A stretch of DNA of 64,000 nt from Octopus vulgaris (taxonomy: Eukaryota), in contig OX597836.1 in assembly GCA_951406725.2 (NCBI GenBank), positions 32,054,001 to 32,118,000 of the forward strand. Reading direction: 5' to 3'. The position numbers were made by a program, and so were the translations under genes. A model generated the notes under the pieces. That model was not told where the DNA came from. It saw only the letters and a list, made by a program, of their open reading frames with translations, and searched no databases. Shown piece after piece: positions 9,376 to 57,763 of this stretch. Within the stretch, counting starts at the first letter, position 1. The number at the start of each line of letters is the position of its first letter.

Positions 9376-9572
9376 CCTCCTTCTTCCCTTCTTTCCTGAG
9401 CGTCCAATAATACTTTATTTGTTCCATGTCCTTGCGTTGTTGTTTTTTTGTTTTTGTTTTCTTGTTTGGATTAACTTTATATATATATGCTTTGCGCAGA
9501 AGCGGTACCATAGCCAATGAGGGTTATCCGAGGCGTGGTTATTGCTAGTTGAAAACTATATATGTATATATC

Positions 9573-9740
9573 GCAAATGAAAGATGGAAGATGGAATATA
9601 CGAGAATTTATTATTAATCATGACAATTGTTTTGACACATCTAGCATCGATTCCTCTTGGGTGCAACACTCAACAAGAAGAAACAATGCTAGATGTGTCG
9701 AAACAATTCTCATATATTCCATCTTCTGTCTTTCATTTGC
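9573..9740. repeat. Fold-back (inverted-repeat) cassette between TA tracts
   Basis: GCAAATGAAAGA..GAAGATGGAATATA pairs with TATATTCCATCTTC..TCTTTCATTTGC; inner arms GACACATCTAGCAT / ATGCTAGATGTGTC. Confidence 0.75.
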
Positions 9741-10223: not shown

Positions 10224-10602
10224 TAAACTTCTTTCAGTTTCTATCTACTAAAGCCTCTCACAAGGCTTTGGTTGGATCAAGACCTTAGTAGAAAATACTT
10301 GCCCAAGATGCAGTGCAGTGAGATTGAACCTGTAACCATGTGGTTGGGAAGCAAGCTTTTTTACCACATAGCCACACCTGCACATAATATTGAATTTTAA
10401 AACAAATATAGAAGCGATCAGTTTCCATATTTTATTCGTCTCATCTACAACAAATTTTAATAAAGATTGATTTCGTCTGACATCATGTAGACCAGTGCTT
10501 CTCAAACTATCTGATGTGGTGTACCACCAGTTTTTTTTTCCACTGTGCCAGGGACCGGTAATATTTCTTAATAATATTAATTTATACCGGAAACAATATA
10601 TA

Positions 10603-11302
10603 TAATATAAGCGGGACCAGCCATCTGAATGTGGCTAGGGACAGGGCGGGGTGGTGGGGGTGTTACTGATGCATTTAGCCCCAGGCGACTATAGAGATCA
10701 CCAGGAGAGCCGACACCATCACGGTGTCCATGCTAGCCTGCAAAGGGAGATCAGCCTCCCCGAAGATACGAATGCTACACCGTGATGGTGTCGGCTCTCC
10801 TGGTGACGTCTATAGTCGCCTGGGGCTAAATGCATCAGTAACACCCCCACCACCCCGCCCTGTCCCTAGCCACATTCAGATGGCTGGTCCCGCTTATATT
10901 ACAGAGCAGTTACTGTTTATACCTCGCTTAGAGATTTATTATTGTTATCGAACAGATTTTCGACGCCAGTGACTGTGTTTACAGTGAAAATCTATATATT
11001 TCTAGCCTGTAGAGGAAGTCCCTCAACGAAGAACGGTGTTTGCCATGCGCTGACGAGAGGCAATACCTCGAAACCGGTCCGTGTGTAGCATTCGTATCTT
11101 CGGGGAGGCTGATCTCCCTTTGCAGGCTAGCAAGGACACCGTGATGGTGTCGGCTCTCCTGGTGACGTCTATAGTCGCCTGGGGCTAAATGCATCAGTAA
11201 CACCCCCACCACCCCGCCCTGTCCCTAGCCACATTCAGATGGCTGGTCCCGCTTATATTACAGAGCAGTTACTGTTTATACCTCGCTTAGAGATTTATTA
11301 TT
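10603..11302 (+). mobile_element. Retrozyme-like non-autonomous retroelement: 359-bp monomer in ~1.5 tandem copies plus an inverted 5' arm
   Basis: 10781-10943 is repeated at 11140-11302; 10603-10780 is the near-perfect reverse complement of 11083-11260; GC-rich, non-coding, with one intact HHR. Confidence 0.8.
11041..11090 (+). ncRNA. Type I hammerhead ribozyme with canonical core
   Basis: CATGCG-CTGACGA-GAGG caata CCTC-GAAA-CCGG-TC^CGTGTG; 6-bp proximal stem I then an internal loop; predicted cleavage after C11079. Confidence 0.88.
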
Positions 11303-11361
11303 AATATATATAATGAATATAATAAAAGTTGACAATTTTTTAAATCTTATATATTTATTTT

Positions 11362-11757
11362 GTGTGGTAAGTAGCTTGCTTTCGAACCACATACTTCCGG
11401 GTTCAGTCCCAATGTGTGGTACCTTGGGCAAGTGTCTTCTACTATAACCTTGGGCCAACCAAAGCCTTGTGAGTGGATTTGATAGATGGAAACTGAACAG
11501 AAGCCCATCATATATATGGATATATATATATATATATATATGTGTGTGTATATGTTTATGTGTCTGTGTTTGTCTCCCCAACATCGCTTGACAACCGATG
11601 CTGGTGTGTTTACATCCCCGTAACTTAGTAGTTCGGCAAAAAAGACTGATAGAATTAGTACTAGGCTTACAAAGAATAAGCACTGGGGTCGATTTGTTCG
11701 ACTAAAGGCGGTGATCCAGCATGGCCACAGTCACATGACTGAAACAAGTAAAAGAGT
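11362..11757 (+). mobile_element. SINE family A
   Basis: Colinear with the 3942-4366 copy, slightly 5'-truncated. Confidence 0.9.
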
Positions 11758-12581
11758 ATATAATACAATATCACTTAAGCATTTTATAAGCATTTTATAA
11801 TGTTTCTTTCTTTTCTGGAAACTCACCATTTACCGGTAGCTGACAGTTCACGGACCGGCACCAGTCCACGGACCACTACTTTTAGTAGCCCTGATATAGA
11901 GCATTGAAATAATACACACACTTAAATGAGCAAGATAACATTTTGAGGTTAATCTGACATTTATTTTGTTCCATAACAACATGAGATAACATTATCAACT
12001 GGTAATTATTTATTTACCAAATTCATGAACCCAACCACAGTGTGGTTCGTTATCCTAATATATCAACATCTAAGCATTCACTCCACTTATCTTTTGTATT
12101 CACATTGTTTTACCTTCTTGGCTTGCTCCTTCTTTCATTGTTTTAATGCTTAGGAATCTTTTATTTGTTTTGGTCATTGGACTGTGGCCATGCTGGGGCA
12201 AAGTCCTTGAGAAATTGTAGTCGAACAAATCTACCCTGGGACATGCTTTTTTAAGCCAGTTACTTATTGCTGAAGTGCCAGGCTACGGGAACGTAAACAC
12301 ACCAACACCAGTTGTCACGCACACACACACACATATAGGCCAACAAACGTTAAGGAAAGGCAAAGATCTCAAGTCTTGCCATGCCTTAATGATTGTTATC
12401 CTCTTTAAACAATTATATATCAACTATATCTGAACTCTGCAATGGCTCCATAACTACTATCTCAGCTATAACCTTGGAACACTAGTAATCTGTTACAGCA
12501 CTTAAGCTAGCGTACCTAATCAGTTAGATCACCTGTGAATTAAACCCCCATATTTTATACATACATATATATGTATATATA

Positions 12582-51083: not shown

Positions 51084-51156
51084 CGCCCACAGGGGGACTC
51101 GAACCCACAACCCTCAGATTAAAAGTCTGATGCTCTACCAACTGAGCTATGCGGGC
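51084..51156 (-). tRNA. trnK: tRNA-Lys(UUU), gene or recent retrocopy
   Basis: GCCCGCA TAGCTCAGTTGGTAGAGCA TCAGA CTTTTAA TCTGA GGGTT GTGGG TTCGAGT CCCCC TGTGGGC G; 73 nt, one T-stem mismatch, oligo-T 8 nt downstream. Confidence 0.88.
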
Positions 51157-57691: not shown

Positions 57692-57763
57692 GCTGGGATT
57701 GTCTAGTGGTTAGAACTCCACGTTGTGGCCGTGGTAACCCAGGTTCGAATCTTGGTCATGGCA
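57692..57763 (+). pseudogene. trnH: tRNA-His(GUG)-derived pseudogene or retrocopy
   Basis: GCTGGGA TTGTCTAGTGGTTAGAACT CCACG TTGTGGC CGTGG TAAC CCAGG TTCGAAT CTTGG TCATGGC A; perfect anticodon arm, damaged acceptor stem, no T4 terminator. Confidence 0.8.

Follow-up and report, generated by a model that had tools for sequence, protein, structure and literature searches.

A recent retrozyme insertion in Octopus vulgaris with a Penelope-like footprint and a probably circular RNA template

The window analyzed in this study is a 64,000-nucleotide stretch of the Octopus vulgaris genome that carries, at positions 10603-11302, a non-coding repeat with a hammerhead ribozyme motif. The locus raises the question how such a repeat moves through the genome and from which form of its RNA it is copied. 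A sequence-only reading of this DNA had proposed a young retrozyme family, arranged in tandem elsewhere and mobilized by Penelope-like elements (PLEs). The reading that we favor, with a probability of roughly 0.65, is that a non-autonomous non-LTR retrozyme inserted here recently; a Penelope-like RT/GIY-YIG protein would have pasted it in, with RNA circles as the most likely source.

The unit had been described as GC-rich, non-coding and repeated with a 359-bp period in near-identical copies, and these points were confirmed: positions 10777-10943 and 11136-11302 are identical at 167 of 167 bases, the GC content is 0.499, and the longest ATG frame of a natural array encodes 30 aa. The element is not a tandem over the whole of 10603-11302, as had been assumed, since 10603-10780 is an inverted copy that matches 11083-11260 at 175 of 178 positions (three mismatches). 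Taking window position 11080, the first base past the predicted cleavage site, as q1 of a monomer numbered q1-359, the element consists of a 178-nt inverted arm (10603-10780, minus strand, q4-181) placed head-to-head with a 526-nt direct arm (10777-11302, plus strand, q57-359 followed by q1-223, or 1.47 units). The inverted arm has no hammerhead and its outer end is at a short 3' site (S); the outer end of the direct arm is at a long 3' site (L). Both arms are 5'-truncated, and their alignment shows a 4-nt overlap where they meet (10777-10780). Period, fold and composition define a single complete 359-nt monomer at 10944-11302 on the plus strand, and the direct arm contains one hammerhead only. 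With a single ribozyme, double cleavage is impossible and the window copy itself cannot release a monomer, contrary to what had been envisaged for this locus.

Flank comparison identified a 12-bp target-site duplication, which is AT-rich on the left (10595-10606) and recurs on the right (11303-11314), both given on the plus strand. The empty site is also represented, as contigs from three of four sequencing runs connect the left flank directly to 11303. The joint from 11302 to 10944 was present in contigs of all four runs examined; because these include a DNA-like run (the kinds of run were guessed), the joint is no demonstration of a circle. Runs X2 and X3 each gave one contig spanning the cleavage site. 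In run X1 the cover ends by 11307 and in the other three runs it goes beyond, a difference within one study that carries no evidential weight. The retrozyme is surrounded by an enclosing repeat (about 10493-11894) that is abundant in the DNA-like run and also holds a SINE-like repeat (about 11361-11770); its ends appear to resemble hAT-type inverted repeats. Elsewhere in the window, a U4 snRNA match on the plus strand (9488-9618) scores above the Rfam gathering score, has a 3' end that decays into AT-rich sequence and is probably a pseudogene. Matches to tRNAs were found at 51084-51156 (minus strand, 70.5 bits) and 57692-57763 (plus strand, 42.5 bits).

The type I hammerhead occupies 11044-11085 of the plus strand, with a 6-bp helix I (11044-11049/11080-11085), the core (11050-11056), a 4-bp helix II (11057-11069), the GAAA motif and predicted cleavage after C11079. 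These parts agree with the hammerhead that had been called intact. Helix III (11073-11078) has only 2 bp and a 2-nt palindromic loop, and it is absent from the minimum-energy fold of the monomer, so that the hammerhead is intact as a dimer only. A helix III of 1-2 bp with a palindromic loop, next to a 6-bp helix I and a 4-bp helix II, characterizes the form described as canonical metazoan type I, which requires a second ribozyme (PMC4209133). Helix I is prolonged by the long rod that had been noticed (11002-11130, plus strand), in which 11002-11015 pairs with 11117-11130 and 11027-11032 with 11097-11102. The fold of the linear monomer has a z-score of -4.0 (-3.97), with none of 100 shuffles equally good, and the circularized 359-mer, whose folding had been suggested as a check, gave -4.1. 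For a two-ribozyme transcript of natural sequence, folding as a double hammerhead costs 8 kcal/mol relative to the minimum, so that this fold is reachable and not favored. Loop II, which had been likened to a Schistosoma-type contact loop, varies more than any other part of the ribozyme, with a length of 5 or 6 nt and six or more sequences. Rfam returned no hammerhead match at the gathering score, nor up to an E-value of 5; its miRNA matches in the element were rejected as a product of the head-to-head inversion. Further downstream, a hairpin (11226-11245) precedes the S site (about 11258-11260), where insertion ends point to a putative first priming site. The tail between S and L (11261-11302, plus strand) has a hairpin at 11282-11292, a full length of 47 nt (to q228) and is common to sister families.

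Other genomic copies of the monomer, which had been predicted, were found: searching the genome returned 168 matches, located at 40 scored places out of 2280 candidates, and near-full-length matches were 93-100% identical. The family to which the window copy belongs, family A, has an exact 21-base motif with 265 genomic matches. The first 100 of these correspond to 45 places on four contigs, which by extrapolation suggests roughly 120 loci. Monomers measure 359-360 nt, arms reach up to 5.6 units, and, judged by the element ends, which are the S and L sites, there is no LTR-like organization. At least two consecutive ribozyme units occur at 14 of 65 loci and three to five at 6 of 65, in several subfamilies; the family as a whole thus has the consecutive ribozymes by which Li et al. 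(2026) define active elements, and the window copy has one. The subfamilies of family A are arranged like a ladder, the window copy being part of the terminal group, and subfamily variants are common to loci on different chromosomes. Dispersed near-identical copies, multi-unit arms and PLE-type insertion anatomy support the proposal of a young, PLE-mobilized family that is tandem elsewhere. An older sister family, A', is about 70-90% identical and its motif has 381 exact matches. The layout of family A is shared by A', by family B (L142-L171), which has a period of about 345-355, and by three further single examples. Divergent retrozyme-like families whose helix III is palindromic and whose tail is similar were seen at L128 (3780-4330), L132 (8830-9290), L080 (1-300) and L134 (6480-6570). 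Words of the element were also found in runs of five coded organism labels, and the family may accordingly be shared by related species.

The insertion ends carry most of the information on how these copies arrived. We tabulated them at 60 of 64 loci, the other four having incomplete sequence. At 35 of the 60 the insertion is two-armed with both ends classifiable, and each of these 35 has one S end and one L end; the remaining loci comprise four with one end elsewhere, 20 that are one-armed and one that is tail-to-tail. S ends fall at q175-184 and L ends at q219-230, 47 nt apart. Target duplications of 11-14 bp are present at seven of eight S+L loci outside (TA)n, compared to 4.5% in cross-locus controls, and (TA)n flanks the insertion on both sides at 37 of the 60 loci. 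The head-to-head junctions of 42 two-armed loci show an overlap of 1-7 nt in 23 cases, are blunt in six, gapped in 11 and have a longer overlap in two. An inverted 5'-truncated arm, a one-sided tail and a (TA)n bias are features of PLEs (PMC8557442; PMC3846280), and for a lizard PLE in vitro both target strands are described as cut and extended, with RT starting at two internal sites that bound the tail (PMC11167929). By analogy, we infer that S and L may be these two RT starts. The combination of S and L ends, inverted truncated arm, one-sided tail, target duplications and (TA)n targets makes mobilization of the PLE type well supported by the DNA, and we regard it as highly probable.

The same anatomy bears on the possibility that the arrays are minisatellites, derived from solo pLTR remnants that expanded in place through unequal crossover and never spread as RNA. 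A local-growth model of this kind has been put forward for vertebrates (10.64898/2026.07.22.740005), and two observations fit it: the number of units changed after insertion at one locus, and some variants are shared by part of the units only. As the main route it is refuted by the fixed S and L ends, the target duplications, the head-to-head arms and the subfamily variants found across chromosomes, all of which indicate that the multimer itself was retrotransposed. We consider local growth hardly credible as the origin of the family.

One locus suggests what the partner of the retrozyme may be. At L059, a retrozyme arm with an S end meets a 5'-truncated RT/GIY-YIG PLE arm with an L end in a 4-nt overlap. 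The RT and GIY-YIG matches in the frame are weak (both with E about 0.0015, under the Pfam cut-offs), and the frame has a cysteine-rich linker of the kind given for Neptune/Nematis. The chimera is found at four loci with common flanks, which represent one event that was duplicated and not independent events. Since its target is (TA)n, the chimera could instead be the result of a deletion between two insertions. One of the duplicates, L130, is one unit shorter than L059, so the unit number changed after insertion. The PLE of the chimera is young, with 40 places at 99-100% identity (1918 candidates), and it obeys the S+L rule in all 10 two-armed copies among 20 loci. This PLE (L059 4442-6645, L122-L141) has an N-terminal part rich in asparagine, and its two 3' ends are separated by about 56 nt. 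It carries a hammerhead-like motif with a non-canonical core, and the copy in L195 has a canonical core. Its ends show no sequence likeness to those of the retrozyme. No autonomous PLE with a retrozyme tail or ribozyme was found among 55 PLE-linked loci (30 GIY-YIG, 20 of the young PLE and five more); the search of the GIY-YIG family gave 148 matches, of which 30 were examined, and the 55 loci together are a small part of the PLEs in this genome. Searches for a cognate PLE with a covariance model and a tail profile found further retrozyme families only. A second young GIY-YIG family (L068, L073 and others) is represented by numerous copies with a 781-aa open frame.

These data also address the case that the sequence-only reading had itself named as contradicting it, i.e., that the unit belongs to an ordinary ORF-bearing PLE as its pLTR; the copies would then be truncated ones. 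The PLE-like insertion anatomy agrees with such an origin, as does the resemblance of frog retrozymes to pLTRs (10.64898/2026.07.22.740005), and the genome search was non-exhaustive, with 100 of 265 motif matches listed. When looked for at the 45 unselected places and at 31 loci over 7.5-9.5 kb, no ORF-bearing PLE with this unit as its pLTR was found; instead, the arms run into the previous unit. The only PLE frame encountered is on the opposite strand. A pair of same-strand matches 4.5 kb apart (L202) was rejected as a candidate because insertion and flanks occur twice, 4.55 kb from each other with an N gap between them, probably an assembly duplication. The RT and GIY-YIG ORF between pLTRs that defines an autonomous EN+ PLE is absent from the retrozyme. 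A truncated pLTR is thus improbable as the nature of the unit, and we continue with the non-autonomous retrozyme.

A PLE-type machinery could act on different RNAs, and the arms provide clues to which one was used. We counted arm stops at the 45 unselected places (from the first 100 of 265 motif matches), the top-scoring set being query-biased for 5' ends. There were 67 arms of at least 40 nt starting at S or L; 45 of them cross the cleavage site, and the interval from -4 to +10 around it contains no arm stop, which excludes the cleaved linear monomer as template. Stops are concentrated at the foot of the rod, with 17 of 67 at q41-70. Junction length at the cleavage site is intact in 105 of 107 units, which argues against template jumping. 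Divergence is 1.10% between opposite arms of a locus, 1.16% between units within an arm and 3.25% between loci. New variants are fixed over all units and both arms, such as 17T in eight of eight pieces of L030 and the private variant 131A in five of five pieces of L035. Variants fixed in every unit, with both arms alike, indicate that multimers were rebuilt from one unit, a bottleneck that rolling-circle copying would produce. Both arms of L215 lack one C at the cleavage junction. This was the sole locus-private indel found common to both arms, a single case noticed post hoc, and it is possible that it represents a ligation scar. Conversely, 10 of 93 locus-private variants do not extend to all units of their locus and in L004 follow a period-3 pattern, and such partial sharing is not given by one pass round one circle; it can arise after insertion, as the comparison of L130 with L059 illustrates. 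Taken together, the arms suggest that a circular template for reverse transcription is probable.

The main competitor for the circle is an uncleaved multimeric read-through transcript, used by the same PLE machinery, with a weak or passenger hammerhead and with circles, if any, not serving as intermediate. Arms that cross the cleavage site fit this template equally well, the variants confined to subsets of units are in its favor, and unprocessed RNA was the main PLE substrate in vitro in the lizard system (PMC11167929). What it explains less well are the arrays of three to five units with subfamily variants in every unit, for which it would need repeated one-unit bottlenecks, and the junction deletion in both arms of L215. 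The possible post-insertion origin of partial sharing also weakens the argument from such variants.

A perfectly palindromic helix III was found in five different sequences, four of which, common or rare, are from families A, A' and B, and in further families as well; its self-pairing energies range from -9.7 to -12.8 kcal/mol. Among 29 chosen copies, 94.9% of cells pair, a level found in 2 of 500 shuffles by a control that ignores relatedness. The core pair 3-8 is CG in 17 of these copies, UG in five, UA in four and other in three. In helix I variation is confined to one side, and the first helix II pair is broken in 13 of the 29. In the rod, a comparison of 22 copies from families A and A' showed two-sided changes at 5 of the 38 predicted pairs. 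Because helix III stays palindromic and pair 3-8 covaries, cleavage as a dimer appears to be under selection, loosely, and this maintenance by covariation is not what a read-through template would lead one to expect. On the other side stands a subfamily with a C3-A8 mismatch, seen at 10 of the 51 loci whose core could be read. A C3-A8 mismatch would be expected to impair hammerhead cleavage. The spread of this subfamily implies that efficient cleavage is not required, in line with a read-through template. Our literature search found no direct paper on the effect of C3-A8; the exchanges G8C and C3G are described to abolish cleavage (PMC11167929). With positions 3 and 8 masked, the C3-A8 subfamily is basal to the C-G group, with the C-G rows on one side of a branch at 87/86. 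We therefore dropped the idea that C3-A8 is a late loss, the order not being settled on a shorter stretch. L207 carries U3-A8. On balance we consider the read-through transcript unlikely, and the RNA circle remains the template that we prefer.

A cycle based on such circles would proceed as follows. An array with at least two ribozymes would be transcribed, after which the palindromic helix III would bring two hammerheads together for cleavage, giving the 359-nt monomer. A host ligase would close the monomer to a circle, which with one hammerhead should be poorly cleavable. The PLE protein would then make a staggered cut and both target strands would be primed, one at S and the other at L. RT would travel 0.1-5.6 turns round the circle, and the two cDNAs would join by microhomology. 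Two published observations speak against the cleavage step: hammerhead mutants had no effect on insertion in the in vitro work on the lizard PLE (PMC11167929), and eight of nine frog retrozyme dimers were uncleaved in vitro as reported in 10.64898/2026.07.22.740005. One may tentatively go further and suppose that the copies record the whole cycle, though we give this somewhat less than even odds. The scar at L215 would then reflect the ligation of cut monomers to circles; the PLE protein would always prime S on one strand and L on the other, even on two RNAs, so that the retrozyme and a PLE of Neptune type, whose ends are unrelated, would have been written at one site in one event; and the core pair would have changed from U3-A8 to C3-G8 via the still-mobile C3-A8.

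The element has the DNA-level features of non-LTR retrozymes; self-cleavage and circles have indirect support, from covariation and from the arms. In mussels, non-LTR retrozymes with 350-390-bp repeats have been shown as RNA circles (Cervera and de la Pena 2020, PMC7229834). As in the metazoan elements of that description, the octopus units are non-coding, self-paired tandem monomers of a few hundred bases with a type I hammerhead per unit, target duplications exceed 4 bp, and PLEs are present in the same genome; 359-360 nt is within the 150-450 bp given for tandem monomers. The GC content is 0.50 here and under 0.45-0.50 there. The very short palindromic helix III resembles amphibian dimer-type ribozymes, unlike the retrozymes of PMC7229834, for which circles are demonstrated; those of the octopus are predicted from DNA. 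We found neither head-to-head arms nor two fixed ends in that description, which names PLEs as candidates only. With EN+ PLEs of the Neptune/Naiad type, as portrayed in PMC8557442, PMC3846280 and PMC11167929, the octopus insertions share partial tandems, an inverted 5'-truncated arm, a tail at one end, (TA)n bias, target duplications (8-10 bp in rotifer PLEs) and two internal RT starts. They differ by the lack of an ORF in the retrozyme and by a tail of 47 nt versus 30-40, and no autonomous element with this tail was found among the 55 PLE-linked loci. Vertebrate retrozymes are presented as non-autonomous PLE derivatives by Li et al. (2026, 10.64898/2026.07.22.740005). Their conclusion on PLE dependence is the same as ours, but its basis there is co-occurrence and pLTR similarity, with local amplification proposed, whereas here it is insertion anatomy, with no pLTR similarity found in the 55 PLE-linked loci. 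MRC1 and other non-autonomous elements of Chlamys (PMC8557442) are also non-autonomous PLEs with multicopy head-to-tail insertions; in that account their 3' ends are similar to those of their autonomous partner and hammerheads are missing from most Chlamys, in which the octopus retrozyme differs. Our literature search, which included PMC10886601 and PMC8967140 and extended to neither subscription journals nor the supplements of PMC7229834 and the bioRxiv paper, which may list cephalopod retrozymes, found no paper on a cephalopod retrozyme and no such anatomy in retrozymes.

As a mere catalogue entry, the family would be one more retrozyme. Movement of animal retrozymes has so far been hypothesized, with PLEs named as candidates (PMC7229834) or proposed through co-occurrence (10.64898/2026.07.22.740005), and the origin of inverted, one-tailed PLE insertions is partly explained so far (PMC11167929). 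If the copies indeed record the whole cycle, recognition by the PLE protein would rest on structure and not on sequence. Since its priming sites are mapped and target duplications, a natural core-mismatch subfamily and a candidate partner are available, this young family provides defined substrates for tests of circle-templated two-ended priming.
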